A stretch of DNA of 42,149 nt. Source: a virus. Its lineage: Duplodnaviria > Heunggongvirae > Uroviricota > Caudoviricetes. The stretch is from IMG/VR virus record IMGVR_UViG_2541047883_000004; one strand, written 5' to 3'. A program made the position numbers and the translations under genes. Shown here in pieces: positions 3,238-37,568 of this stretch. How positions within the stretch are numbered: the first letter of the stretch is position 1; the number at the start of each line of letters is the position of its first letter. The notes under the pieces were generated by a model. It was not told the DNA's origin. It did not search any database and saw nothing but the letters and a program-made list of their open reading frames with translations.

Positions 3238-3878
3238 TTGTCGGTATACCTCTCTCGTTTGCTCAGTTGTTCAGGAATATGGTGCAGCAGCTCGCTGTCA
3301 CCACAGTAAATGGCGGCATGATTCGGCACCGATGAACCAAAACAGCACAGCAGCACATCGCCCGGCTGCGCCGCTGACAACGGCACCTGATACAGCCCTG
3401 TGGCCTCCAGATTATCCAGATAGAGATTCTGACCGTTACGCCACCAGTCATCCTCGCGATGAAAATCCGGCATCTCAATCCCCGCCAGATGGTAAGCATC
3501 CCGGAACAGCGTGTAACAGTCCGTCACCCCGTGCTCAAAGCGCCGCCCGGAAAGATGTGGCACACAGCGGAACTTGTGAATCGCTCCCCGGCAAACCAGC
3601 CACCACGGCAAATCACTCTGCACCTGCAGCCGCCGGTCGGTCTCACTCAGCCAGGGCATACCACCGGGGTGGCTGTGGACCAGCGCCACAATCTCACCCT
3701 GCATCTCTGCCCGCAGCCAGTCCTCCGGCGACATCCGGAAATACTCCTCCGGCTCACCGGAGATATTCACGCAGGGAAAATATCTTTCCCCCTCCGGTGT
3801 TCTCACCACGAAGCCGCACGACTCCGCTGGCGCACATCGCCGGGCGTGCGCCAGAATCGCTGATTCTGTCTCTGTCAT
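3135..3878 (-). CDS. K: Tail assembly protein K (JAB/MPN plus NlpC/P60-type)
   Basis: 247-aa translation with HSHP metal motif and conserved Cys/His; sits in the lambda K position between L and I and overlaps the I start. Confidence 0.8.
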   Translation of the reverse strand: MTETESAILAHARRCAPAESCGFVVRTPEGERYFPCVNISGEPEEYFRMSPEDWLRAEMQGEIVALVHSHPGGMPWLSETDRRLQVQSDLPWWLVCRGAIHKFRCVPHLSGRRFEHGVTDCYTLFRDAYHLAGIEMPDFHREDDWWRNGQNLYLDNLEATGLYQVPLSAAQPGDVLLCCFGSSVPNHAAIYCGDSELLHHIPEQLSKRERYTDKWQRRTHSLWRHRAWHASAFTGIYNDLAAASTFE

Positions 3879-3883
3879 GGGAT

Positions 3884-4582
3884 TTACTGCGAAAGTTTGT
3901 TAATGGAAAGGAAGCCGCCAAAGTTGCCGACATTATTGCGGAACTTACAACCACTCAGGCATTTGCTGCATTTATCCTTCGTGATATCGGACGTCGGCTG
4001 GTCATATTCATCCGCGACCGCCGGACCGTGATAACCGCACTCATCACCGCGATAGGTCCAGGTGCAGGTATTAGCCAGCATGATGCGCCCCGGAAAAACA
4101 GCACCGTCCGTTTCCGTCGGCGTGGACAGTACAAAAGAGGCACTGACCGCGCTCAGTTCGCTGCACTGCTCGATGCGCCAGCGGCTGATCACCTCCTGCT
4201 CCGGATCGGCGTCACTGTTTCCGTTGACGAAGTTCACCGCATCCAGAAAACGGGCGTAAACCTTACGCCTGACCACCGTTCCGCCGACCAGACTCTGCAG
4301 GTCTTCCGCCATCCCGGTGACCATTCCGTGCAGGTTAGAAACCGTCAGTGTCGGACGGGCAGCACTGCCCTTGCCGTTCAGTTCAAATCCCGTCCCCTGA
4401 ATGGGGTATGCCTGATACTGCCGCCCCTGCCAGGTAACCGGCTCACCTTTTTCGTTCTGCTCATTACAGAAAAAATAACGTTCACCACCGACCTCTGTCA
4501 GATCGATTTCCCAGAGCACCACCTGGGCTGACTGAGTGAGGCGTGTCGTCTCATGATGTGTTTCCTGTGGAATATCCTGCAT
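3884..4582 (-). CDS. L: Minor tail protein L
   Basis: 232 aa, same length and position as lambda gpL; Cys cluster near the C-terminus. Confidence 0.85.
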   Translation of the reverse strand: MQDIPQETHHETTRLTQSAQVVLWEIDLTEVGGERYFFCNEQNEKGEPVTWQGRQYQAYPIQGTGFELNGKGSAARPTLTVSNLHGMVTGMAEDLQSLVGGTVVRRKVYARFLDAVNFVNGNSDADPEQEVISRWRIEQCSELSAVSASFVLSTPTETDGAVFPGRIMLANTCTWTYRGDECGYHGPAVADEYDQPTSDITKDKCSKCLSGCKFRNNVGNFGGFLSINKLSQ

Positions 4583-4591
4583 CAGAGCCTC

Positions 4592-4921
4592 CTATGCCAC
4601 GACCTGTTCAAAATCTGCCGTTATGGTTACCCACAGCGCCCCCACGCTTGCCGACCATTTACGACAAACCACCCTGATCGGTTTCCAGTCATAAGGTGGC
4701 GTCCACTGAAATGCACGGACGCCACCGTGCCGTTCCAGAAAGGCTTTTAAAGATGGGTGTTCACATTTACGAACACGTATCGTCACGCTGTAAGTCGACA
4801 ACTGGTTATTCAGTCCCGCCGCACGACGCTGTTCATAACCATCGTCCAGCTTCACTGTCACCACTTTCGGCTCTGATACCACATTCATATCCGGGCGCAC
4901 TTTCCAGTGAAACGTCTCCAT
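4592..4921 (-). CDS. M: Minor tail protein M
   Basis: 109 aa, lambda gpM length and position; the start overlaps the H stop. Confidence 0.85.
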   Translation of the reverse strand: METFHWKVRPDMNVVSEPKVVTVKLDDGYEQRRAAGLNNQLSTYSVTIRVRKCEHPSLKAFLERHGGVRAFQWTPPYDWKPIRVVCRKWSASVGALWVTITADFEQVVA

Positions 4922-6172
4922 TACCGATATGCTCCACTTAACCGACCACCATCACGGGCCTGCTGTTGCATAAAGTCCGCTGCCGCTTTTTTCCCGAGGT
5001 CATAAACCGCCTTCAGGGCAGCCGGACCTATCTGCCCGTTCGTGCCATCGTTATTGATCTCGATGTTGTACTGCGGGGAAAACATCGCCATACCTGAACC
5101 CCCAATATCCGCCACAACCCCCAGCTTACCGTCAGCACCACGACGCAATGGCAGAATGGCTTCAGGTCCCGCTTCCCCCATCACACCCGCGCCTTTTGCA
5201 AAAGCAAAAAACGTCGGACGGTTAACCACCGTGCCACTGTAACGACTCAAATCAGCAGACTGATAAATCCCCCCATTGGCATTCAGGGAAAGGCTGCTGA
5301 GATCAAATCCCAGTACACTGCCAATCCCTTTTATCGATTTCATCATGGTTGCCTGCGCCAGGATTTTCGCCATATCTGACAGCACAGAAGAGGTGAAGGA
5401 TTTGAAATTGAGTTTGCCGGTAGTGACAAAAGTTGCCAGGCCATTTCCCATGTTGCTGAAGGCTGACGAGAACACCTGTTCTGCTGTTTCTGCCGTATTA
5501 TCTGCATCCACGGTAAAATCCTGAAATGCACGCAGGACTCCGTTTTTCCAGTTACCCTGCACAACTTCAAGCTGTTGCCAGTAACGGCGATTCTCATTCA
5601 GTTGTCGGTTCAGGCTCTCCGTCAGCGCCTGCTCGGCCTTTCTGTAGTCATCCGTGTTATATGTCCCTTTCTGCTCACTATCCCGCCTCAACTGCTCCAG
5701 CTGTTGCTGGTATTTCTGGCGAAGACTCAGTTGTACCTGATATCGCTGTCGCTGCTGATCACCCATACCCACCGTGGCGATATCCAGGTCATGTTGCTGA
5801 CGCTGAGCGCGCTCTTCTTCAGCCAGTTGACTGGTCAGCTGAATTGTTTTTTTCTTCAGCTCGTTGAGTGCCGTCTGTTTCTGAAGCTCCTGCTGTTTTA
5901 CATCCAGCAGCGTCAGTGCCTGAATCAGTTCATCTTTACGGGCCAGCACACTCTTTTCATCTGCCGTCAGTTTTTTCCCGTCCAGGTCGCTGATGCGCTG
6001 CTGCAGAGCCAGGAGCTGTTTATGCGCTTCTGTCATCCTTTCCGTGGCAATGCCTGCTGACTGTCTGGCAGCAGCAATCTGTCCTTCCACCTGTGCCTGT
6101 TGCTGACTGTACTGCAGCAATAACCGGGTGGCCTCATCATTACGGGTTTCGCGTGTTTTTTTCTTACCGGAT
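4921..6172 (-). pseudogene. H: Tape measure protein H, C-terminal fragment (split by IS insertion)
   Basis: The frame stays open upstream of the ORF-finder start up to the IS junction (... GKKKTRETRNDEATRLLLQYSQQQ ...). The C-terminus (NNDGTNGQIGPAALKAVYD ... RDGGRLSGAYR) resembles the lambda gpH C-terminus. Confidence 0.85.
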
Positions 6173-6265
6173 TATGAGACGACAATAACTCAGTCCGCCT
6201 GGCGCCGATTATTCTGGCCGGTTTTGTAACCTGAGTGTCATTTACATGATCCAACAGGAAATGGC

Positions 6266-7765
6266 GTGACGCTCAATACTTCTCAGGTCAGTTACTATAT
6301 GACTCAGCGTAAGAAAGGTATAACTCAGCATATCTCGGCCATGAAGGCTGGTATCTCAGTCCGTTCTGGTCGTCGGATCGAAAAAGGAGAGTGGGCAAAA
6401 AACAGTGTTCGGCACTGGCGCACACGCAAAGATCCTCTGGAAGCTGTGTGGGACAGCATGCTTGTTCCTCTGTTGAAAGAGAGGCCGGCTCTGACACCAA
6501 CAACTCTGCTGGAGATGCTACAGGATAAATATCCCGGCCAGTACCCCAACAGCCTTCGAAGAACAATGCAACGGCGGGTCCGCGAATGGAAGCTACAGTA
6601 TGGTGCAGAGCAGGAGGTCATGTTCCGCCAGCGACATCAGCCCGGTCTGCGAGGTCTGTCGGACTTTACTGAACTGAAAGGTGTAGTTGTCACCATCGCC
6701 GGTAAGTTGTTGGCGCATAAGTTGTATCACTTCCGTCTGGAATGGAGCCACTGGAGCTGGATGCGGGTTGTGCTGGGTGGTGAGAGCTTCTCTGCTCTGG
6801 CTGAAGGTCTGCAGGAAGCCCTCGGACAACTGGGCGGAGTGCCGGTAGAACATAAAACGGACAGCCTGAGGGCAGCATGGAAACAACAGGGCGAAGATGG
6901 ACGCCGCGAGCTGACTGAGCGTTATGCTGCTCTCTGTCAGCACTACGGAATGCAGGGCGTACACAATAATGCCGGTCGGGGCCACGAAAATGGCTCGGTT
7001 GAAAGTGCCCACGGACATCTGAAAAGGCGTATCTGTCAGGCGCTGATACTGCGGGGCAGTAACGACTTCAGCACCATAGAAGAATATCAGGCCTTCATCA
7101 CTCAGCAGGTTATGCGGCACAACCGTAACAATCAGGATCTGGTCAAGGAAGAACGTCTTCATCTGAAACCGCTGCCGCTTCGTCGCAGTGCTGACTATGA
7201 TGAGCTGACTGTGAGGGTTAGCCGCAGCAGTACCATCAATGTGAAGCACGTCGTCTACAGCGTACCTTCCCGGCTTGTAGGTCAACTGTTACGGGTCCGG
7301 TTATGGGACGATCGTCTGAGCTGTTACGTTGGCAGCAGCGAGGTCATGAGCTGCCCACGTGTCAGACCAGAAAAAGGGAAGACGCGGGCCCGTCGTATCG
7401 ACTTCCGACATGTGATCGACAGTCTGGCAAAAAAGCCCGGTGCGTTCTGCCATGCAACGCTGAGAAATGACATCCTGCCAGACGATGAATGGCGGAGGCT
7501 GTGGCGTCGCTTATGTAATCATCTGGAACCCGACATGGCAGGCAGGCTGATGGTACATGCTCTGAAACTGGCTGCAGGATACGACGATATCTCAGTCGTG
7601 GCAAAAGGTATGGAGCAGATGCTGAATACCCCGGGAAACGTGGATCTGCACCGGCTGATGCGCTTCCTGGGTATAAAGGAAAAGGCGTTGCCGGTAGTCA
7701 ATGTGAAACAGCATAACCTGAGCAGTTATGAGCAACTACTGCGTGGCAAGGGAGGTTCGCAGTGA
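6266..7765 (+). CDS. istA: IS21-family transposase IstA (GTG start)
   Basis: 499-aa translation with N-terminal HTH and an integrase-type catalytic core; immediately followed by an overlapping istB, the typical IS21 arrangement. Confidence 0.85.
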   Translation: MTLNTSQVSYYMTQRKKGITQHISAMKAGISVRSGRRIEKGEWAKNSVRHWRTRKDPLEAVWDSMLVPLLKERPALTPTTLLEMLQDKYPGQYPNSLRRTMQRRVREWKLQYGAEQEVMFRQRHQPGLRGLSDFTELKGVVVTIAGKLLAHKLYHFRLEWSHWSWMRVVLGGESFSALAEGLQEALGQLGGVPVEHKTDSLRAAWKQQGEDGRRELTERYAALCQHYGMQGVHNNAGRGHENGSVESAHGHLKRRICQALILRGSNDFSTIEEYQAFITQQVMRHNRNNQDLVKEERLHLKPLPLRRSADYDELTVRVSRSSTINVKHVVYSVPSRLVGQLLRVRLWDDRLSCYVGSSEVMSCPRVRPEKGKTRARRIDFRHVIDSLAKKPGAFCHATLRNDILPDDEWRRLWRRLCNHLEPDMAGRLMVHALKLAAGYDDISVVAKGMEQMLNTPGNVDLHRLMRFLGIKEKALPVVNVKQHNLSSYEQLLRGKGGSQ

Positions 7766-20477: not shown

Positions 20478-20684
20478 TCAGTCAACCACCAGGGAATAAT
20501 CCTTCGTATTCTTATCGTGCTTTACTAACGCGGCCTCAATTGCCCTGAATGCTTCCAGAGACACTTGATGTTCTATACATGCAATTACAACATCCGGGTA
20601 ACCCATCGAAATGGTGCTATTAAGCATAGTTTTTACACGAACCTGCTCCTGGGAGGGGGCATCAGTGTATTGATCTTTATGCAT
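20478..20684 (-). CDS. Hypothetical small protein near cos
   Basis: 68-aa ORF only; no recognised motif. Confidence 0.3.
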
Positions 20685-20977
20685 TTTGTCGCTCCATGCG
20701 TTTGCTCTTCACTTACGGCTAAAAATATAACGTCAAATCACTCAGCATGAAAGAGTTAAAGATTCAGCGCGTTTCCCTTACATAATCTGTCGTTTGTATT
20801 CTCATCAGGCATACCGGAAAGACTAGGTATTGTCACACAACCAATACCATCGACAATCGAGATTTATACCTATTCGGTAATGTTTAAATATAACAAAACC
20901 CCGTAAAAACGAGGTTTATGGGTAATTTGTATTGTTGAATAGCATCTGATGAGAAATTGATGCTAATACTAAACAGA

Positions 20978-21151
20978 CTAGATTAAATCAATCTTGATAT
21001 CATAGCTTTCAAGACCAGTCATTTTTTCCCGTGCAGTAAACTGGATACTGGTAACTTCTTTCCCGGTCTTTTTCTTAAGCTCAATGATTTTTTTTGTTAT
21101 ATATTCAGAAATATCTGCTTCTGTTTTTGTTTTTAACTCTTCAATGTTCAT
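20978..21151 (-). CDS. gnsB: GnsA/GnsB-family protein
   Basis: 57 aa MNIEELKTKTEADISEYITKKIIELKKKTGKEVTSIQFTAREKMTGLESYDIKIDLI, near-colinear with E. coli GnsA/GnsB as recalled; SD GAGG. Confidence 0.7.
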   Translation of the reverse strand: MNIEELKTKTEADISEYITKKIIELKKKTGKEVTSIQFTAREKMTGLESYDIKIDLI

Positions 21152-21323
21152 CATTTCCTCTTTTAGTCTGTTATGACTTTCCTGGTACACAGTAGTGTCA
21201 ATTATATGGAGCAAACGTATAAAAGATAAGATGAAACATCGCAATAATCAACATACGACGGTCTAAATTTCACACAAACAGATAAAGATGATTATCATTT
21301 ATTATCAATGCATTAGAATCAAA

Positions 21324-21554
21324 TCAATTCAAGAGTCTCATTGCTGCTTCCAGAATTTCTTCTGAAGTTACATGTCGATCCGCTGCTACATAAATGATTT
21401 TATGATCTCCGGTCAGAGATGGAAACCCTGCAGCCATTACAGTGAGGTGTGTTGTTTCGCCATTTGGATATTCACGCATGATGGTGTTAACTCCGGTCAT
21501 CACTGGCACTACCATTGCTGGTTCAGAGTTAAAAAAAACTATTATTTTTTTCAT
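21324..21554 (-). CDS. Small conserved prophage protein (YnfN-position)
   Basis: 76-aa ORF in the slot occupied by ynfN in Qin-like gene order (csp - ynfN - gnsB). Identity not verified. Confidence 0.4.
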   Translation of the reverse strand: MKKIIVFFNSEPAMVVPVMTGVNTIMREYPNGETTHLTVMAAGFPSLTGDHKIIYVAADRHVTSEEILEAAMRLLN

Positions 21555-21592
21555 AATGTTACCGTATTATGTGAGTATCCATCGACTAGACA

Positions 21593-21621
21593 CTAAGAAA
21601 AAAAGCTCCCGAAGGAGCCTT
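21593..21621 (-). terminator. Rho-independent terminator after the csp unit
   Basis: Minus strand reads GGCTCC-TTCG-GGAGC followed by TTTTTTTCTT. Confidence 0.6.
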
Positions 21622-21626
21622 CATTT

Positions 21627-21842
21627 TCACTTTCTTAAATCTAACGATAGACGGCTAACATTTAAGTATTGTGAAATATTATCAAATGTAATCATCATTG
21701 ATTTACAAAAGATACATTTTGCCCCGAAAGGATTCCTGTCAGAAACATCAAAAGATGATGTTCTATACTGAGAACCATGGCAACACGGGCATCTAAAGTG
21801 AATATGGTTTGTAATATTATCTACCTCAAAGTGCCACAACAT
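21627..21842 (-). CDS. Possible zinc-ribbon small protein (CPCC ... CIFC)
   Basis: ORF with four Cys in ribbon spacing, ending directly before the terminator. It overlaps the csp 3' end, so the start is uncertain. Confidence 0.3.
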
Positions 21843-22038
21843 GAACAGCCGCGGGGCCTTTAGGTCCGTTCTCAATACCAAATTCGACTTCCTGATTCTC
21901 AGTTAACGTTTTGAAATCGTTGCTCTGAATAGCTGAGAAATGGACAAACACATCTTTGCTACCATCTTTCGGCGTGATGAAACCAAAACCTTTTTCAGGG
22001 TTAAACCATTTCACTAAACCAGTCATTTTGTTAGACAT
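21826..22038 (-). CDS. cspI: Cold-shock protein, CspA family (CspI-like)
   Basis: [38 protein letters not shown] ... with RNP1/RNP2 motifs; long AT-rich 5' leader (22042-22400) typical of csp genes. Confidence 0.8.
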
Positions 22039-22401
22039 CATTATTACCTTTTGAAGAAGTTAGCCCTTGGGCAGAATGGTCCGAAAAAAAATATCAGAGA
22101 GAAAAACCAACAAGGAAATCTCAAGAGGTACAAATAATAAAATTATAACAATGACTGCTTCAGATAATTTTGTAACAAACCAGAACACCATTAACGCATG
22201 ATTAACCAACCATAGCAAGGATTACTTTTGTAAAGAAAAACACACGAATGAAACAATAGCTTTATTTATTAATAAAACGTGTCATTCTGTCTAATGACCT
22301 TTTATCTTACCCTTAAGATTTCAAGGATTTTGACTCATGGAAGAGTCCTTTTTATTTAAATTTCACATTCAGCGCTAAAAATAATCCGATTTAATATTAA
22401 T

Positions 22402-23429
<1,028 letters not shown>

Positions 23430-23542: not shown

Positions 23543-23803
23543 ATGGATTACACAAATCTACCTAAACAAACTTTTGCTGATTTAATCGCACTCAGGCAAG
23601 CAGTCGTAGCTCTAATCAACTTGTTGCCGGAGAAGGAAAAGGAATTAGTTAAAGCGCTTCTTAACAGAACTGCCGCCGATTTTTCATCATATCCACTGAC
23701 AGATGACCTTGCGGACCTTCCTGAATTAATTGCAGCGTCCGCCAATAAGCTTACTGAAGAGATTTACCCTCCTCAAAAATCTTCACAAAATTCCTGCGAG
23801 TAA
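23543..23803 (+). CDS. Hypothetical acidic helical protein, antisense to the late operon
   Basis: 86-aa ORF with SD GAGG; convergent with, and overlapping by about 50 nt, the 190-aa minus-strand ORF. Confidence 0.3.
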   Translation: MDYTNLPKQTFADLIALRQAVVALINLLPEKEKELVKALLNRTAADFSSYPLTDDLADLPELIAASANKLTEEIYPPQKSSQNSCE

Positions 23804-24302
23804 CTTCAATGCAATAATCGTAAAACGCCGCAAACTGCTCATCGCGGCGTTTTTTTTCATCTTCAGAAGGAATCAGCACCGACAATTTTTTATTCAGATC
23901 AGCGACGCTGCCCTCCAGTTTTTCAATGGGCGATTCAATATCATCTTTTTCTGACCGCAATGCCGTCGGTGGCGTCTTCAGAGAACCAGTAATTCTTCCC
24001 GGTAGCTTTCCTTTGTAGGTTATCCACACATTCTGCGCCTCTAAAATTATGGGGCGCTTTTCCGGCGACTGCTCATCCCCTTCACATAACCCGGCAGCAA
24101 CATCCAGGAAGACCTGTCTGATGCTCCTTCTGGCTGCTGCCTCATAAAACTCCAGCGCGGCACCTTCAACACGGTCCAGCGAGATGTCCAGGTCAAAAAT
24201 TTCACCGTCAAAGTGTTTTTTGTCCCGTAAGGCTACAGTTACCGCCACTTTATTCTCAAAATTGCGAACTCCTTTCACAACCAGTTCATAGTCTTGAGTC
24301 AT
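23751..24302 (-). CDS. Hypothetical protein inserted between holin and endolysin
   Basis: About 183 aa from MTQDYELVVKG; the ATG lies 5 nt after the holin stop. Acidic, no TM segment, no motif I recognise. Confidence 0.5.
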   Translation of the reverse strand: MTQDYELVVKGVRNFENKVAVTVALRDKKHFDGEIFDLDISLDRVEGAALEFYEAAARRSIRQVFLDVAAGLCEGDEQSPEKRPIILEAQNVWITYKGKLPGRITGSLKTPPTALRSEKDDIESPIEKLEGSVADLNKKLSVLIPSEDEKKRRDEQFAAFYDYCIEVTRRNFVKIFEEGKSLQ

Positions 24303-24306
24303 TGGA

Positions 24307-24522
24307 TTACTCTCTTCTCGCAACCTTACGCCTGTCTTCTTTAATCTTGAAATAAAGGTTTGTCAGATACGTCAGCATGCCAAATACCAGACTACCCAAT
24401 ACACCTATTGCCGCCCACTGTGAGGGCGTGACTTTATCGAGCAACTGTAAAAACCAGTAGCCAGCACTGCCTGCAGAGGTGCTGTAGGCGATGCCCGTTG
24501 TTAACTTATCCATGGATTTCAT
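24307..24522 (-). CDS. S: Class II holin / pinholin (phage 21 S-like) with dual-start motif MKSM
   Basis: 71 aa [71 protein letters not shown], near-colinear with S21/EssD as recalled; SD GGAGGTG. Confidence 0.85.
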
Positions 24523-24613
24523 AGCCTCACCTCCGCAGATAACGGATGGTGTACACGGTTTGGTTCGAAGAAGGAAAGAAGTTACATTAGCGTAAGGCCC
24601 GAACATCTATTCA

Positions 24614-24646
24614 AAAAGAAAAACGCCAGCAATTATTCTGGCGTAG
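24614..24646 (-). terminator. Rho-independent terminator after the AraC-family gene
   Basis: Minus strand reads CGCCAG-AATAATTG-CTGGCG followed by TTTTTCTTTTT. Confidence 0.55.
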
Positions 24647-24712
24647 CTAAAAATATCGTATAATCTTACACTTCAAAAAATAACTTTATAAAATGCCATC
24701 ACATCATATCTT

Positions 24713-25426
24713 CTAAGAAAATCTTGATAAATATTGGTGCGGAGGCACACCAAAATATCCTCTAAAAACACTTACAAAATATGATGCATTGTCATACCCG
24801 CATATTCCCGCCACCTTGCCGACAGTATGGTTACTGTAGATCAATAATCTTTGCGCCATCATCATTCGTTCTTCAAGAATTAATTTACTAAACGATAATC
24901 CTTCGTCTTTTAATTTTCTTTTTAACAAACTCTCGCTCATATATAATCTTGAAGATATATCACAAAGTCTCCATGACGCTGAGATATCCGAGTGAATAAT
25001 AGCCTTAACTTTACAACCTAAGCTATTAAGACTTCCGAACAAAAAACTTTGCACTATTTTCTCTGAAGATAAGACAGCAAGACATGCAAGTGATATTTGA
25101 TTTCTAACTACATCCACGGTTTTGCTATCACAATTCAAGCATGCAACCAAGTTCCTTAACAATGAAAAATCTTCACATTCTACTATCAAGTATGACGGAT
25201 AAAACCTTCTTACAGAAAAAGGTGAGAGTGTGTAGTTTTTAAAGAAATCATTAACTGTTTTCTCCTCAACATCTACGATCATTAGATGATCTGTATTTGA
25301 CGAAAAAAGATCTTTTAAATTGTATTCGATGAGGACAGCACTTCCTTTTTTAAACAAAATATCTTCTTTACCAATTCGGACACCAAACGAGTTCAACACC
25401 AAAATGACAGAACATATGTATGGCAT
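24713..25426 (-). CDS. AraC-family transcriptional regulator (AppY-like)
   Basis: N-terminus MPYICSVILV resembles AppY (MDYVCSVVF) as recalled; C-terminal AraC HTH (... GICGYDNASYFVSVFRGYFGVPPHQY); SD GGTGG. AT-rich codon usage. Confidence 0.8.
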   Translation of the reverse strand: MPYICSVILVLNSFGVRIGKEDILFKKGSAVLIEYNLKDLFSSNTDHLMIVDVEEKTVNDFFKNYTLSPFSVRRFYPSYLIVECEDFSLLRNLVACLNCDSKTVDVVRNQISLACLAVLSSEKIVQSFLFGSLNSLGCKVKAIIHSDISASWRLCDISSRLYMSESLLKRKLKDEGLSFSKLILEERMMMAQRLLIYSNHTVGKVAGICGYDNASYFVSVFRGYFGVPPHQYLSRFS

Positions 25427-25832
25427 ATTATCCACCTGATATCACTGGGGTTACACCAGGTAAGTATAGGTGGAAAATCAATATTCGCCAGTTCAACAAT
25501 AAGGAAAATCTCATTGCATCACAACTATAAAACCATGTGTTTAACTCACAAAAAACAAATCATTAAACTAATCTGTTATATTATAATAGCTGCGTGCAAT
25601 AATAATATTATATACTCTTAATATTCACTTGAAATATCTTCATATAAAAACAGATTGAATAAAATCTTTTGGGGCTGGTATGTTTACCAACATTAAATTG
25701 CATCTCAATGTTTTCTTCAGCGTGAACAGGATTTTTATACAAACTGACACTATGGGTATCATAGTGTAGTTTTTACGATTGTAAATATCCTGCATACAGG
25801 AACTCATCACTTTCAGATGATATCGCATACAG

Positions 25833-26792
25833 TTAATTCACCATCAGTCTTAGAGCCAGTTCTTCCGGATAGGGATCGAAGTAATTCTGTGTAAGCAAGT
25901 AATCATTAGGATACTCACCCAGATAATGCTTCAGCAGAGTCAACGGCGCAAGAAGAGGCAATGTGCCAAAGCGATAGTTAAGTATAACCTCGGTCAACTC
26001 TTTACGCTGGCGTGTACTTAAGTAATTACTAAAATACCCCTGTATATGCATCAGCACATTCGTGTGATTTTTACGTGATGCAGGTTTTCTGAGAATCGCC
26101 ATCAGCTTATCACGATACACCTCAAAGTATGATTCAAGGTCCGCCCACTCGTGTATTGCAGCCACAAATGGTCCCATATCTTTATAGCCTGCCTGACTAT
26201 GCGCCAACAACTGAAGCTTATAACGACTATGAAAAGCTAATAACTCTCTTCTTGATAATTTCTCCTTGTAAAGGTGATTGAGCTCATGCAAAGCAAAAAC
26301 TCTTTCAACAAAATTCTCACGAAGCACTGGATCATGTAATCGCCCATCCTCTTCAACCGGTAGCCAGGAAAACTTTTCCATCAAAGTGCTCGTAAATAGT
26401 CCCACTCCATCTTTACGACCTCGATTACCATTTTCATCATAGACACGCACGCGCTCCATGCCACAGCTGGGAGATTTAGCACAAACCACAAACCCCGATA
26501 CATCCTTTAATTTGTGCATATAAGAACGACTAAACTCTGTCATTCTCTCTGTCACATCCTCATTCTGGTCGTGGCTGAAACACATCCGTATATTTCCTTG
26601 CTTCGAGCGCACAAGACGTAGAGCAGGACGCGGAACTGGCAGCCCTATAGCCATTTCCGGACATACTGGTCTGAATGTTACCCATTCCACTAATTTGTCC
26701 ATTAAAAAGTCAGCTCTTTTGTGACCACCATCAAAACGAACAGCAGAACCGGCCAAACAACCGCTGATTCCAATCACAGGTTTTTTTATCAT
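25833..26792 (-). CDS. DUF523 (TudS-like Fe-S) plus DUF1722 fusion protein
   Basis: N-terminal GISGCLAG, VCPE and SPSCG Cys pattern as in DUF523/thiouracil desulfidase proteins; the C-terminal half is DUF1722/YbgA-like; SD GGGAGG. Confidence 0.65.
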   Translation of the reverse strand: MIKKPVIGISGCLAGSAVRFDGGHKRADFLMDKLVEWVTFRPVCPEMAIGLPVPRPALRLVRSKQGNIRMCFSHDQNEDVTERMTEFSRSYMHKLKDVSGFVVCAKSPSCGMERVRVYDENGNRGRKDGVGLFTSTLMEKFSWLPVEEDGRLHDPVLRENFVERVFALHELNHLYKEKLSRRELLAFHSRYKLQLLAHSQAGYKDMGPFVAAIHEWADLESYFEVYRDKLMAILRKPASRKNHTNVLMHIQGYFSNYLSTRQRKELTEVILNYRFGTLPLLAPLTLLKHYLGEYPNDYLLTQNYFDPYPEELALRLMVN

Positions 26793-26984
26793 ATCCTCCC
26801 CCTTGACTAATTCATTAACACATAAACTGTGTAGTGCACGGAATAAATTGCCTTTCTGACGTCATCACTGACAATTTTTCTGTTATGGACTATTCCTAAT
26901 ATAGTATGAAAGTTCTTTAAGTGATCGGTCGTAATCATCTATCTTTCATACTTACTCTCAACTATCAAAAGTACAGGATTGATT

Positions 26985-27509
26985 ATGAAGTTATGGCCTG
27001 TGTTGACTGGCATTGCACTCTCTTTCACTCTTATAGCATGTAAGGCCCCGACACCACCTAAAGGTGTGCAGCCGATTACAAATTTTGACGCCAACCGCTA
27101 CCTCGGAAAATGGTATGAAATAGCTCGCCTCGAGAACCGGTTCGAACGTGGTCTGGAGCAGGTCAGCGCTACTTATGGAAAACGGAACGACGGAGGGATT
27201 CGTGTACTTAACCGTGGATACGATCCAACGAAAAATAAATGGAGCGAGAGCGAAGGTAAAGCATACTTTACTGGAGATACTAAAACTGCAGCGTTGAAGG
27301 TTTCGTTTTTTGGCCCCTTCTATGGTGGCTATAATGTAATCAAACTGGATGATGAGTATAAGTATGCTCTTGTTAGTGGTTCGAACAGAGAATACCTATG
27401 GATTCTGGCAAGGACCCCAACTATTCCAGATAAAGTAAAAGCAGACTATGTGCGAACCGCTCAAAAGTTGGGATTCAATGTCAATGAATTATTATGGGTT
27501 AAACAATAA
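26985..27509 (+). CDS. blc: Outer-membrane lipocalin Blc homologue
   Basis: Lipobox LIAC; motifs NFDANRYLGKWYEIARLENRFERG and KVSFFGPFYGGYNVI match E. coli Blc as recalled; SD AGGA. Confidence 0.85.
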   Translation: MKLWPVLTGIALSFTLIACKAPTPPKGVQPITNFDANRYLGKWYEIARLENRFERGLEQVSATYGKRNDGGIRVLNRGYDPTKNKWSESEGKAYFTGDTKTAALKVSFFGPFYGGYNVIKLDDEYKYALVSGSNREYLWILARTPTIPDKVKADYVRTAQKLGFNVNELLWVKQ

Positions 27510-27534
27510 AATCCCTACCCGAAATGATACTTAT

Positions 27535-27565
27535 TAGAAAAAAACCAGCCTTTGGGGAGGCTGGC
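27535..27565 (-). terminator. Rho-independent terminator, candidate tR' of the late operon
   Basis: Minus strand reads CCAGCCT-CCCCAA-AGGCTGG followed by TTTTTTTT, about 100 nt downstream of Q. Confidence 0.6.
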
Positions 27566-27574
27566 TAAATCAGG

Positions 27575-27664
27575 AAACAAGCTGTTATATGATAATAACT
27601 ACGTTGCGATTCCAACATTTAAAATGTTAGACTAATGACAATCAGACAGCAACTTTTCCTTTAA
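27575..27664 (-). promoter_or_regulatory. Candidate late promoter PR' / qut region
   Basis: Position only: AT-rich segment between the Q stop and the tR'-like terminator. No promoter hexamers confidently assigned. Confidence 0.35.
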
Positions 27665-28042
27665 TTATTTCGAACAATCAGCATCCATCTCCAATCGGAG
27701 ATCCAATACCATCAGCATGCCCTCCACTACGCCCTCAGCTTTCTGGAGCATCCTGCCAACCCAACAATCAGATCGCCCATGCTTACGTGCAAGCGCCATA
27801 AAAGTCATGCCGCCGACATAATAGTCCACCAATAAACCATGTAAATCGCTGTTGTTTTTTCTCAGGCGAGCCATACATTCACAAATGATCATCGCGTCAT
27901 CGTCACAGCATTGCGGACGAGATCTTACTTTTGAAGGAATTAATCCCTTAAAACCAGCGGCAATGGACGACCAGGTCACATCTTCATGATTATTAGCCGC
28001 CCATGCCCCCCAACGCTCAAGAACCATCTGAATATCACGCAT
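27665..28042 (-). CDS. Q: Late antiterminator Q (QuuD / phage 21-82 type)
   Basis: [35 protein letters not shown] ... [12 protein letters not shown], near-colinear with E. coli QuuD as recalled; SD GGAG. Confidence 0.85.
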
Positions 28043-29495: not shown

Positions 29496-30641
29496 TTATT
29501 TTTGTTTTATGGTAAATGAAATAACATTGTCAGAATGAATCATATCTGATTCTTTAAATCGTGTAATTGCAGATAACTCATTTAAGGGAAGAGCAAAGAT
29601 ATCAGTTAACTCAGTTACCTTTATGATTGAATGCTTATCAAGAAGTAAAAGTAACTTATTAAGTAACTCAGGCTCTTCTTTTGGGATTGCATCATCTAAC
29701 GGCTCCCTACGATGGAATGGCGCTAATTGCTTAAATATATAGCTTTTCTGATTATCGCTGATTAACTTAAGGCTATGACTCCTCATGGCAATACTACCGA
29801 TAGATGTAATCCAACGTAGTTTTAATCGTTCTAACGCTGATAAATTTGGACTATAAAATTCACGCCCGAAAGTGGTGGCTGGCATTAAAAAGCTGGAGGC
29901 AAAATAATCGGCCTGCAACTCCACCAGGTCGAATAATTCTTTATCATTCAGGTAGTCATCCTCCACTGCCCTATGCATAATTAAATGGCCAAGTTCATGA
30001 GCAAGACTAAATCGCATGCGAACAGCCGTCTTCGAGCTATCTAACATAATTAAAGGCCGCCCATTATGCCAGAACGAAAAGGCATCAACTTTCTCACCAG
30101 AAGGTAAATGAGAAACCACGATTCCTTTATTTTCAACAAGTCTAGTTAAATTGAGTATTGGACCATCACCTAACCCCCAAAAACGCCTTAATTGGGTGGA
30201 CATATCCTCAATATCAGATAGAGACAGAACCTCAAAATCAATAATATCGAATTCAGGCAGAACCACATCTGGTAATTGAGCATATTTTAGACATTCATCC
30301 AATATTAATGCCGCCCAACGCCCACGTGTTTTCCCTGTAACTCGAGCCTTTTTGGTCGCAGTTGAACGACTTCTAAAATGAATCGCCCCCTCCAGAGATG
30401 GAGAAGCACTGGAGGCTAAGAAAAATCGTTCTGGAAATCCTAACACCTTGGCTATTGCAGAAAGTGTATCAGCAGAGGGAGACTTCAACCCCTTCTCAAA
30501 TGACGAAATAGCTTGTCTTGAAATATTGAGCACTCTGGCAAGTTCAGCCATCGTCAACCCTTTTGCCTCTCTTGCCTCCTCAAGGCGACGAGGATTAAAC
30601 GATTTATCAGTAAATGGTGTTTGTGCGATATTCATGCTCAT
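29496..30641 (-). CDS. XRE-family HTH fused to ImmA/IrrE (M78) zinc metallopeptidase
   Basis: N-terminal HTH (GLTMAELARVLNISRQAISSFEKG); HExxH motif HELGHLIMH with downstream ELQADYFASSF typical of ImmA/IrrE. The ATG overlaps the stop of the upstream gene (ATGA). Confidence 0.8.
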   Translation of the reverse strand: MSMNIAQTPFTDKSFNPRRLEEAREAKGLTMAELARVLNISRQAISSFEKGLKSPSADTLSAIAKVLGFPERFFLASSASPSLEGAIHFRSRSTATKKARVTGKTRGRWAALILDECLKYAQLPDVVLPEFDIIDFEVLSLSDIEDMSTQLRRFWGLGDGPILNLTRLVENKGIVVSHLPSGEKVDAFSFWHNGRPLIMLDSSKTAVRMRFSLAHELGHLIMHRAVEDDYLNDKELFDLVELQADYFASSFLMPATTFGREFYSPNLSALERLKLRWITSIGSIAMRSHSLKLISDNQKSYIFKQLAPFHRREPLDDAIPKEEPELLNKLLLLLDKHSIIKVTELTDIFALPLNELSAITRFKESDMIHSDNVISFTIKQK

Positions 30642-31418: not shown

Positions 31419-31574
31419 TTACTCCTCAGGTTCGTAAGCTGTGAAGACAGCGACCTCCGTCTGGCCGGTTCGGATTCGTACCTCGCAGAGGTCTTTCCTC
31501 GTTACCAGTGCCGTCACTATGACGGTTAAACAGATGACGATCAGGGCGATTAACATCGCCTTTTGCTGCTTCAT
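31419..31574 (-). CDS. hok: Hok-family type I toxin
   Basis: MKQQKAMLIALIVICLTVIVTALVTRKDLCEVRIRTGQTEVAVFTAYEPEE, colinear with Hok (... [28 protein letters not shown]) as recalled. Confidence 0.85.
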   Translation of the reverse strand: MKQQKAMLIALIVICLTVIVTALVTRKDLCEVRIRTGQTEVAVFTAYEPEE

Positions 31575-31640
31575 AGCCTGCTTCTCCTTGCCTTCCGGCA
31601 CGAAAGAGGCTAACCTACATGTGTCTAGCATGAAATTGGC
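31560..31640 (+). ncRNA. Candidate Sok-like antisense RNA region over the hok leader
   Basis: Position only, from established hok/sok organisation. Promoter and 3' end not identified in the sequence. Confidence 0.25.
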
Positions 31641-32197
31641 CTCAGATTAATGTTAAGCGTCTTGCAGGACGCGTAATGTTAACTGGGGCTTTTCTCTATC
31701 TGCCGTTGGTGTTCATGCCTGAGGCAGATAGCCTCAAGCACCCGCAGCAATTCTACTTAACTCACGTCACCTCGCCAATATAAAATCAATCAGAAAGGCG
31801 ATCCGTAAGAACAACAGCAAGACAATAAATTGCCATTACAGCCGCAATAGCTAGCGCACATTTGAGAACCAGCACGACAACCTCCTGAATTGGAAGTACA
31901 CCAGTCCTGATAAATATGAGGCTGTCTCGTCAGTGATTCAATACAACTATTGGGTATAGTTTCTCAGATTTTTTTCTGTGGAAATTGGACACAACACCCG
32001 CTCACCACCAGCACTTCTTTAAACACACCTAGTCAGGATCCCGCCTGACCTTTTATAACACGTAACTGTTAACTGACAGGCAATAGCCTGTCGGATATTA
32101 CAATGTCAGCTCTTGGTGCGAAGCTGTCGCACTAATTCTGTGAGCGAAGAACGGACATTTTCATTGTTGATACAGGATACATTGAAGTAGTCAACCA

Positions 32198-37082: not shown

Positions 37083-37568
37083 AACTGTGGTGATTTTAAG
37101 GATACCACCTCGCCTGACGTGGTTAAAAGCAGGCACACAACACGAAAGCGCACGGCGAAGTTCGTCTCACTGTACGGTGTCGTTAAATTTAATTCGACCG
37201 TGCGCTTCCGGTTGTGGCAACCCGCGAAATGGCGCGGCGGTAAGTATGGCGGGGTTATTCCTTCCCCGTTGAGGACACCGGGTTGTCAGGTTGACCATAC
37301 GCTTAAGTGACAACCCCGCTGCAACGCCCTCTGTTATCAATTTTCTGGTGACGTTTAGCGGTATCAGTTTTACTCCGTGACTGCTCTGCCGCCGTTTTTA
37401 AAGTGAATTTTGTGATGCGGTGAATGCGGCTGAGCGCACGCGGAACAGTTAAAACCAAAAACAGTGTTATGGGTGGATTCTCTGTATCCGACGTTAATTG
37501 TTAACTGGTTAACGTCACCTGGAGGCACCAGGCACTGCATCACAAAATTCATTGTTGAGGACGCGATA

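Follow-up and report, generated by a model that had tools for sequence, protein, structure and literature searches.

A composite blc-rudS-araC cassette between the Q and holin genes of a lambdoid Escherichia coli prophage, a probable moron of lysogen stress tolerance

We analyzed a 42,149-nt stretch of viral DNA (IMG/VR record IMGVR_UViG_2541047883_000004; hereafter the window, in whose numbering all positions are given and in which the late genes lie on the minus strand) and, within it, a three-gene island situated between the late antiterminator gene Q and the holin gene S. The island comprises blc, coding for an outer-membrane lipocalin lipoprotein, rudS, coding for a fusion of the TudS (DUF523) and DUF1722 domains, and a gene for an AraC-family regulator (here araC). 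The results point to a composite moron cassette, i.e. lysogenic-conversion cargo, in the Q-S slot of a lambdoid prophage that occupies the Qin site of Escherichia coli, with increased stress tolerance of the lysogen as its net effect, and we estimate the probability of this reading at about 0.75. Its first module would be a divergent blc-rudS pair captured from an enterobacterial chromosome, where the locus consists of blc, a MerR/MlrA-like gene, a transthyretin-like gene and rudS, and the second an AT-rich gene for a PatE-like AraC protein, equipped with a promoter-like element and a terminator of its own. The RudS enzyme would convert the 4-thiouridine of tRNA (s4U8, a near-UV sensor) back to uridine.

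The window matches many E. coli chromosomes with 100% identity, among them NZ_CP018957, in which it is an entire lambdoid prophage, inserted at the Qin attachment site and adjoining rspB. In the late direction, Q (in RefSeq, "antiterminator Q family protein") is followed by a tR'-like terminator, blc on the opposite strand, rudS, an AT-rich spacer, araC, a further terminator and the gene for an S21-type holin (Table 1). A preliminary description, made from the letters of the window without database searches, had placed the island at 24607-27534, between Q/tR' and the holin; all its features are found at or very near these positions and the genes were placed correctly, but the borders have to be moved. 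The holin most likely starts at 24522, as does the 71-aa essQ of the RefSeq annotation, rather than at 24606, where the longest open reading frame (ORF) begins, so that the spacer from araC to S measures 190 nt and the island covers about 24523-27664. The AT-richness noted in the same description is evident, with a GC content of 0.383 between 24607 and 27534 vs 0.50 in the remaining window; araC (0.34) falls into the lowest 1.6% of 714-nt windows, and rudS and blc have values of 0.43-0.44. This departure of the base composition from the phage backbone is typical for morons, and so is the absence of the cassette from related phages that carry other genes between the same conserved flanks. The homology to DLP12 breaks off at about 27683, close to the 3' end of Q, and sets in again some 20 nt upstream of the holin start (essD in DLP12), the slot of DLP12 being filled by nmpC in antisense orientation. 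Phages with an 84%-identical Q have porin genes there, and in the Stx1a phage Stx1_121427 a closely related Q is followed by stx1A and stx1B, which supports the proposal that the island sits where Stx phages carry stx.

The key member of the cassette is rudS. Its product matches the complete model of the TudS/DUF523 domain (PF04463, E=5.5e-40, residues 7-149, model positions 1-141 of 141) and, in the same polypeptide, the complete model of DUF1722 (PF08349, E=9.4e-40, residues 192-309, model positions 1-117 of 117), as well as phrog_3275 (E=5e-225); over 152 aa the DUF1722 region shares 49% identity with E. coli YbgA. The three Cys ligands of the [4Fe-4S] cluster, reported as present in the preliminary description, are kept on alignment with TudS (PDB 6Z92), where Cys12, Cys44 and Cys110 fall on Cys10, Cys43 and Cys104, and they occupy the positions listed for RudS_vir and RudS_ST (PMC11417400). 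Glu46 in the CPE motif, Arg55, and Ser107 and Ser109 in the SPSCG motif correspond to Glu51, Arg60, Ser111 and Ser113 of RudS_KT, a mapping made by offset from the Cys residues and not by direct alignment. The DUF1722 domain contains Ser239-Arg240, and a Ser-Arg pair of this domain has been implicated in tRNA binding (PMC11417400). TudS-DUF1722 fusions have been defined as RudS, tRNA 4-thiouridine desulfidases (Jamontas et al., NAR 2024; PMC11417400). The protein of the window is 92.5% identical to RudS_vir (gp66 of phage 1H12), from which it differs at 24 positions, and 98.1% identical to its counterpart in IdasGreatGrand, and its gene belongs to a group of 98-99% identical alleles common to IdasGreatGrand and many RefSeq genomes. 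By sequence it is thus identified as RudS, a predicted [4Fe-4S] tRNA 4-thiouridine desulfidase. According to the cited work (PMC11417400), every RudS variant, RudS_vir included, lowered the s4U content of E. coli tRNA upon overexpression, overexpression of RudS_KT shortened the growth delay caused by ultraviolet A (UVA) from ~105 to ~60 min, and s4U, UVA and the stringent response are linked. The early suggestion that the enzyme could relate to tRNA thiolation is therefore in line with the activity of the 92.5%-identical 1H12 orthologue, which reduces tRNA 4-thiouridine.

The product of blc exceeds the cut-off of the NCBIfam model of the Blc subfamily (NF007786, 312 bits vs 267), possesses a lipobox (LIAC, with Cys19 and a Lys at +2) and matches the Blc structures in the PDB with E-values of ~1e-66 to 5e-68 (3MBT, E=5e-68), as expected for the divergent Blc lipocalin lipoprotein of the preliminary description. 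Its identity to Blc of strain K-12 is 59%, as compared with 79-81% to the products of the rudS-neighbouring blc genes of Citrobacter sedlakii and Enterobacter cloacae. When each species was represented by a single genome, 64 rudS loci were obtained. Of these, 62 are not of the E. coli type; their RudS proteins show 66-76% identity, and they belong to Citrobacter, Enterobacter, Kluyvera, Leclercia, Klebsiella, Pectobacterium and Dickeya; within E. coli the 90% cluster of RudS comprises 2556 member sequences, and the next relatives follow at 76%. About 40 of the 62 species loci have, upstream of rudS and on the other strand, a blc gene whose product shares 72-82% identity with the phage Blc, and in 36 loci a MerR/MlrA-like regulator gene and a transthyretin-like gene stand between the two. 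The resulting order, with blc diverging from the series merR (MlrA-like), transthyretin-like gene and rudS, is conserved across Enterobacter, Leclercia and Lelliottia (e.g. at 4021-6957 of the Enterobacter cloacae locus, and in 35 like loci). In Citrobacter sedlakii blc and rudS are directly adjacent, with a gap of 187 bp vs 192 bp in the window.

Because divergent blc/rudS loci are conserved in other genera, and because Blc of the window is closer to their products (79-81%) than to E. coli Blc (59%), the phage blc-rudS pair appears to be a captured and reduced copy of a conserved chromosomal locus, which has lost MerR control. The conserved gene order suggests, moreover, a functional link of Blc to a RudS stress module; the word "lipocalin" does not occur in the main text of the RudS paper (PMC11417400). 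Neither an AraC gene nor a photolyase gene was present in any of the species rudS loci scanned. We also considered control of the phage rudS by the host MlrA and dropped it, given that no MlrA box is found and that the only inverted repeat of the blc-rudS intergenic region of the window (6 bp, with a 21-nt spacer) is not kept in 1H12.

In the AraC-family protein, the C-terminal double helix-turn-helix (HTH) DNA-binding domain is recognized by HTH_18 and by HTH_AraC (E=6e-11). The preliminary description called it AppY-like, which holds as far as the group is concerned, with end-to-end identities (BLASTP) of 34% to GadW, 31% to AppY and 29% to YdeO, but a closer relative is a prophage-borne protein of the PatE type. 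This AraC protein of a CP-933H-like remnant, at ~309 kb in the genome of O157:H7 ATCC 43894, is 48% identical end to end (BLASTP E=1.5e-76); it is called PatE here by the position of its gene only, by which the gene should be patE (z0321, OI-8). Between the two, the DNA-binding domains are 65% and the N-terminal domains 35% identical. The scores against the NCBIfam equivalog models remain far below the cut-offs (112.5 bits vs 348 for YdeO, 89.9 vs 500 for GadX), and to judge from these comparisons the regulator is a distinct member of the PatE/GadW/AppY/YdeO group rather than AppY, YdeO or GadX. PsrA (z1789) was sought in the same O157:H7 genome between 1.625 and 1.675 Mb, and no AraC homologue was found there. 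In a set of 5.8 billion proteins the homologues of the regulator carry E. coli labels only and form a ladder of alleles with 97, 85, 76, 60, 51 and 48% identity; temperate coliphages mEp332, PhiR70_1 and ev099 possess the 47% type. PatE activates gadB, gadC, gadE and hdeAB and represses genes of the enterocyte effacement locus (LEE), and activation of the acid-resistance genes gadE/hdeAB is known for both PatE and PsrB (reviewed in PMC10877973).

In order to compare the parts of the cassette, we aligned five alleles, from the window, 1H12, IdasGreatGrand, PK8261 and K71-77. Identity among them is 90-99% for Q, blc, the blc-rudS spacer and rudS (92-99% for the blc-rudS pair), whereas it is 82-89% for araC and 66-92% for the spacer upstream of araC, which shows insertions or deletions of 57-94 nt. 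The cassette appears composite, with araC as a separate, faster-evolving module confined to E. coli, since araC is more divergent than the pair (82-89% vs 92-99%), has a lower GC content (0.34 vs 0.43-0.44) and has homologues labelled E. coli only. All three genes are under purifying selection: dN/dS is 0.13-0.33 for rudS, 0.07-0.19 for blc and 0.20-0.22 for araC, at dS values of up to 0.3-0.6, and with dN/dS in this range (0.07-0.33) we take all three to be maintained by selection.

Among 5426 complete E. coli genomes, a collection that is clonally biased, the segment from Q to S is at least 80% covered in 980, the island alone in 883 (in any part, in 1154) and araC in 996, which corresponds to a prevalence of the island of 16-21%. 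Among 50,697 phage records, in contrast, the cassette is present in 12, and a full RudS was found in none of the sequenced phages outside these 12. The remark in the preliminary description that a desulfidase in this slot is unusual is hence justified for phage isolates, but not for E. coli genomes. Some carriers are phages that were recovered as free virions (1H12, the Lambda_ev series, IdasGreatGrand), and the prophages differ in backbone and location, comprising the Qin site, a DLP12-like remnant and a lambda/iss-type prophage. Mathieu et al. 2020 had listed blc among the morons, with more than half of their infant-gut lambda phages carrying it. As a side observation, two short contigs (JARKOR010000151 and JARKOR010000135) in a metagenome-assembled genome of 'Candidatus Nanosynbacter sp.' (Saccharibacteria) encode Q, blc, rudS, araC and the holin with 85-99% amino acid identity; this occurrence is almost certainly a binning contamination.

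A terminator scan found seven terminator-like sites in the region vs 2.7 +/- 1.7 in shuffled sequences. The tR'-like terminator, about 100 nt past the Q stop, is a hairpin with a 9-bp stem (AGCCAGCC...GGCTGG) and a run of seven T, invariant in the five cassette alleles, and the late promoter pR' must be placed between the Q stop and this hairpin, in 27567-27664. The terminator after araC (24644-24613) consists of the hairpin ACGCCAG...CTGGCGT and a T-run and is kept across alleles, with the surrounding spacer only ~83% identical; a terminator of its own, attributed to araC already in the preliminary description, is a further moron feature. Both hairpins are thus retained in alleles that diverge by 8-18% or more in the spacers at the flanks. 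Upstream of araC we found the promoter-like element TTTACA-N16-TATGAT (25785-25758), which agrees with the consensus at 10 of 12 positions and is kept as a block among alleles despite the low overall identity of the rudS-araC spacer. Its -10 hexamer is overlapped by a perfect 9-bp palindrome (ACACTATG.....CATAGTGT; 25747-25767, minus strand), which is conserved in the 1H12-type allele only in part and could be an operator or a weak terminator of rudS. In the blc/rudS intergenic region, 90-98% identical among cassette alleles, one weak promoter-like site faces rudS (26961-26934).

The layout and the biology of lambdoid phages suggest how these signals would be used. Upon induction, RNA polymerase modified by Q would read past the hairpin at 27566 and transcribe rudS, araC and the antisense strand of blc, for which the stx genes are a precedent. 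As blc is antisense to the late transcript, it would be expressed only from its own promoter, in the lysogen; araC would probably also use its own promoter, while the hairpin at 24644 would keep moron transcription out of the holin gene. In the lysogen, RudS would lower s4U and shorten the UVA growth delay, the PatE-like regulator may activate acid resistance, and Blc may contribute to the handling of envelope lipids.

The same arrangement allows a function in the lytic cycle, which we regard as unlikely. RudS made from the late transcript would strip s4U8 at induction, often by UV, or would alter a tRNA that is recognized by host defences; without s4U8-C13 cross-links, uncharged tRNA or arrest by ppGpp, late protein synthesis and burst size would be kept. 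This alternative is favoured by the orientation of rudS and araC, which is that of Q and S, downstream of a tR'-like terminator as in the case of stx, by the loss of the native MerR on capture, which fits a move to phage late control, by the link between s4U, UVA and the stringent response described in PMC11417400, and by the presence of the cassette in free-virion phages. A stronger version, in which RudS is an epitranscriptomic takeover enzyme of lambdoid phages, made from the Q-antiterminated late transcript on from induction (often by sunlight or UV), strikes us as slightly more doubtful still; if true, a prophage would, as a side effect, set about one fifth of E. coli strains apart from K-12 and B in their s4U content and their response to UVA. 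A lytic function is hard to reconcile with a blc gene antisense to the late transcript and an araC gene with its own promoter-like element and terminator, which is the typical design of morons expressed in lysogens. Furthermore, insertion sequences (IS) often disrupt rudS and this is tolerated, rudS is dispensed with by related phages whose Q and S come from the same families, and erasure of s4U is unable to mend tRNA that is already cross-linked. As to defences, AraC, RudS and Blc gave no match to a defence system in PADLOC at E<=1e-3, and there is no sign of an anti-defence role.

Several observations speak against the cassette being a lysogenic-conversion moron of chromosomal ancestry and have to be set against the evidence given above. 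As regards expression, sigma-70 promoter-like matches are not in excess (13 vs 11.5 +/- 3.5 in shuffled sequences), so far as the sequence goes the conservation of one element is what suggests that the cargo genes might have their own promoters, and a consensus search from the Q stop to the tR' hairpin gave no convincing -35/-10 pair for pR'. As regards ancestry, nothing aligns between the blc-rudS intergenic DNA of the window and that of the Citrobacter loci, a box of the MlrA/MerR type (AAAATTGTACA-N12-TGTACAATTTT, at most three mismatches per arm) is absent from the intergenic region of the window, with a 6-mismatch match only in Enterobacter, and the MerR regulator of the chromosomal loci is missing from the phage copy. 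As regards function, a role of the regulator in acid resistance would be extrapolated from a 48%-identical protein that is PatE by position only, and RudS_vir, well expressed, was the least active RudS on tRNA (PMC11417400). Finally, the cassette shows signs of decay. Of 60 evenly sampled genomes, 11 have IS1, IS2, IS3 or IS5 within it; the annotation gives araC as frameshifted in K71-77 (6188-6918 of the locus) and PK8261 (5067-5799 of the locus); and E. coli B (ATCC 11303) has the cassette with rudS split by IS3 at about codon 49 (3811-6031 of the locus). Because of these insertions, frameshifts and the disruption in E. coli B, loss of cassette genes seems to be tolerated. In C41(DE3) a deletion extends from the IS3 in rudS through araC and the lysis genes (3808-5147 of the locus), and BL21 derivatives give the same shortened match, apparently by the same deletion. 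It seems that the AT-rich island serves as a target of IS elements and is inactivated at times.

Two of these observations lead to alternatives of their own. The low activity of RudS_vir on tRNA, together with its lag on 4-thiouracil, the shortest among the RudS proteins tested (PMC11417400), and with a TudS domain that is complete in all its ligands, would fit an enzyme that acts mainly on free 4-thiouracil, 4-thio-UMP or released s4U and yields uracil or UMP, in salvage or detoxification like the stand-alone TudS. Growth of the uracil auxotroph was, however, supported by TudS and by none of the RudS proteins (PMC11417400), all RudS proteins, RudS_vir included, reduced tRNA s4U, and the DUF1722 tRNA-binding domain of the window protein is full length, under purifying selection and has kept its Ser-Arg pair; we consider this alternative the least probable of all. 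The insertions in 11 of the 60 genomes, the two araC frameshifts, the IS3 disruption in E. coli B and the deletion in BL21 would, in turn, suit passive DNA in a recombination-permissive slot, whose prevalence mirrors how well the prophages carrying it have fared, together with clonal sampling, all the more in a clonally biased collection of genomes. Such neutral hitch-hiking is very improbable in view of dN/dS values of 0.07-0.33 at dS of up to 0.3-0.6, of the same architecture in different backbones and integration sites, and of the conserved terminators and one conserved promoter-like element. Both salvage and hitch-hiking are less likely than lysogenic conversion, and conversion towards stress tolerance is the most probable net role of the cassette.

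Table 1. Features of the Q-S slot and its flanks in the window, in the order of late transcription
Feature	Position	Strand	Evidence or remark
Late antiterminator Q (Q21/PF06530 family), upstream slot boundary	27665-28042	-	PF06530 E=3.4e-50; PDB 6P18 (Q21) E=4.9e-10
tR'-like intrinsic terminator	hairpin 27566-27543, with T-run to 27535	-	terminator scan
blc, outer-membrane lipocalin lipoprotein, antisense to late transcript	26985-27509 (alternative start 26979)	+	Lipocalin_2/PF08212 E=2.7e-43
Divergent blc/rudS intergenic region, 192 nt, GC 0.34	26793-26984	.	presumed promoters of both genes
rudS, TudS(DUF523)-DUF1722 fusion, 319 aa, co-oriented with late operon	25833-26792	-	Pfam PF04463 + PF08349
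rudS-araC spacer, 406 nt, AT-rich (GC 0.313)	25427-25832	-	holds promoter-like element
AraC-family regulator, 237 aa	24713-25426 (RefSeq start; ORF to 25435)	-	HTH_18 E=3e-16
Intrinsic terminator after araC	hairpin 24644-24623, with T-run to 24613	-	terminator scan
S21-type class II holin (essQ), downstream slot boundary	24307-24522	-	PF04971 E=8.9e-34

Outside the slot, the window contains further elements. Between the holin and the lysozyme genes lies a 190-aa ORF of the DUF1327/YdfR family (23751-24323, minus strand), which RefSeq regards as a truncated pseudogene, and an 86-aa ORF on the strand opposite to it (23543-23803, plus strand) has no Pfam match. A second AT-rich low of the window (GC 0.31-0.38, at about 20600-22600) surrounds a cspA-type element. 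In the Rfam search the island itself contains no RNA family, and three matches above the gathering score were obtained elsewhere: the cspA thermoregulator (21780-22196, minus strand), here the 5' untranslated region of a cold-shock moron that resembles cspI and lies downstream of the lysis genes, the sok antitoxin RNA beside hokD (31569-31743, minus strand) and the DicF small RNA (37343-37394, plus strand). In the early-right region a 381-aa protein with HTH and peptidase domains (29496-30641, minus strand) matches the PADLOC 'RmrA' models (E=5.5e-102; capP/capH more weakly). The next gene on the same strand codes for a hypothetical protein of 204 aa (26332-26946 of the RefSeq locus), and the two may form a pair of the defence or toxin-antitoxin type.

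Taken as a whole, the cassette is a moron of an ordinary kind that has been described before, with a key enzyme assayed in 2024 and a blc gene listed as a moron in 2020. That the same three genes recur at this position in many prophages, with a known function, is largely the case; this deprives the island of its novelty, not of its interpretation. The literature searched contains nothing on the blc-rudS-araC trio as a unit, nor any follow-up of viral RudS, beyond PMC11417400 and Mathieu et al. 2020, and the descent from a blc-merR-ttr-rudS locus, the prevalence of 16-21%, the IS3-null state of E. coli B/BL21 and the PatE-like regulator appear to be new. For genome annotation the consequences are small, the cassette being already present in hundreds of RefSeq genomes. 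E. coli has been stated in the RudS literature to lack RudS, which holds for K-12 and, by way of the IS3 disruption or deletion, for B and BL21, but not species-wide: an apparently intact prophage rudS is found in 16-21% of the complete genomes. Strains can therefore be tested directly for differences in tRNA s4U, in UVA growth delay and in sensitivity to solar disinfection. The blc-rudS pair, as a stripped-down chromosomal locus, may tie Blc to a RudS stress module, and the cassette would add one member to the PatE/Psr class of prophage AraC proteins, which rewires acid resistance and virulence of E. coli.

Compared with known systems, the closest match of the cassette is that of phage 1H12, in which RudS_vir (gp66, H3V29_gp66) has the same length of 319 aa and the same Cys12, Cys44 and Cys110, and its gene the same position in the order Q-blc-rudS-araC-S (with gp67 after gp66); the allele of the window differs from it at the 24 residues mentioned, and removal of s4U by the window protein would be expected from this homology. 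The chromosomal RudS loci, such as ORF319/RudS_ST of Salmonella, located in Salmonella pathogenicity island 2 (SPI-2) with the MerR regulator MlrB (orf242), and rudS of Enterobacter cloacae, located by a MerR gene, share with the phage copy the two-domain enzyme of 319 aa, the Cys positions and 66-76% identity, as well as a blc gene divergently upstream in most Enterobacter, Leclercia and Lelliottia and directly adjacent in C. sedlakii. The phage copy differs in that it is devoid of the MerR/MlrA-like and transthyretin-like genes, has gained araC downstream, resides in a phage late operon and has a lower GC content (0.43). Blc of the window resembles E. coli Blc (b4149, the outer-membrane lipoprotein of stationary phase) in the Lipocalin_2 fold, the lipobox, the length and the score above the subfamily cut-off, but its orthologues are the blc genes linked to rudS in other genera, and it is no copy of the ampC-linked b4149.

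The regulator shares architecture, length and an N-terminal 'CSVI' motif with PatE, PsrA and PsrB, the AraC-like GAD/hde activators of O157:H7 prophages, and with GadW, GadX, AppY and YdeO; like the PatE/Psr genes, its gene is prophage-borne, AT-rich and restricted to E. coli. The PatE/Psr genes, however, lie at prophage ends or effector loci, unlike araC in its Q-S slot, and the regulator, with scores below the cut-offs for YdeO and GadX, is no orthologue; its N-terminal domain is only 35% identical to that of the PatE-like protein. Lastly, the cargo of lambdoid Q-S slots, which includes stx1/stx2 in Stx phages, porins of the nmpC/ompD type in DLP12 and its relatives and cspB/cspF in Qin, occupies the same position between Q/tR' and S, with related Q21-family Q and S21-type holin genes as flanks and, in DLP12, with a first cargo gene that is antisense, as blc is in the window. 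These phages carry other cargo, and the pR'/tR' segment at 27510-27682 is specific to phages with the blc-rudS-araC cassette.

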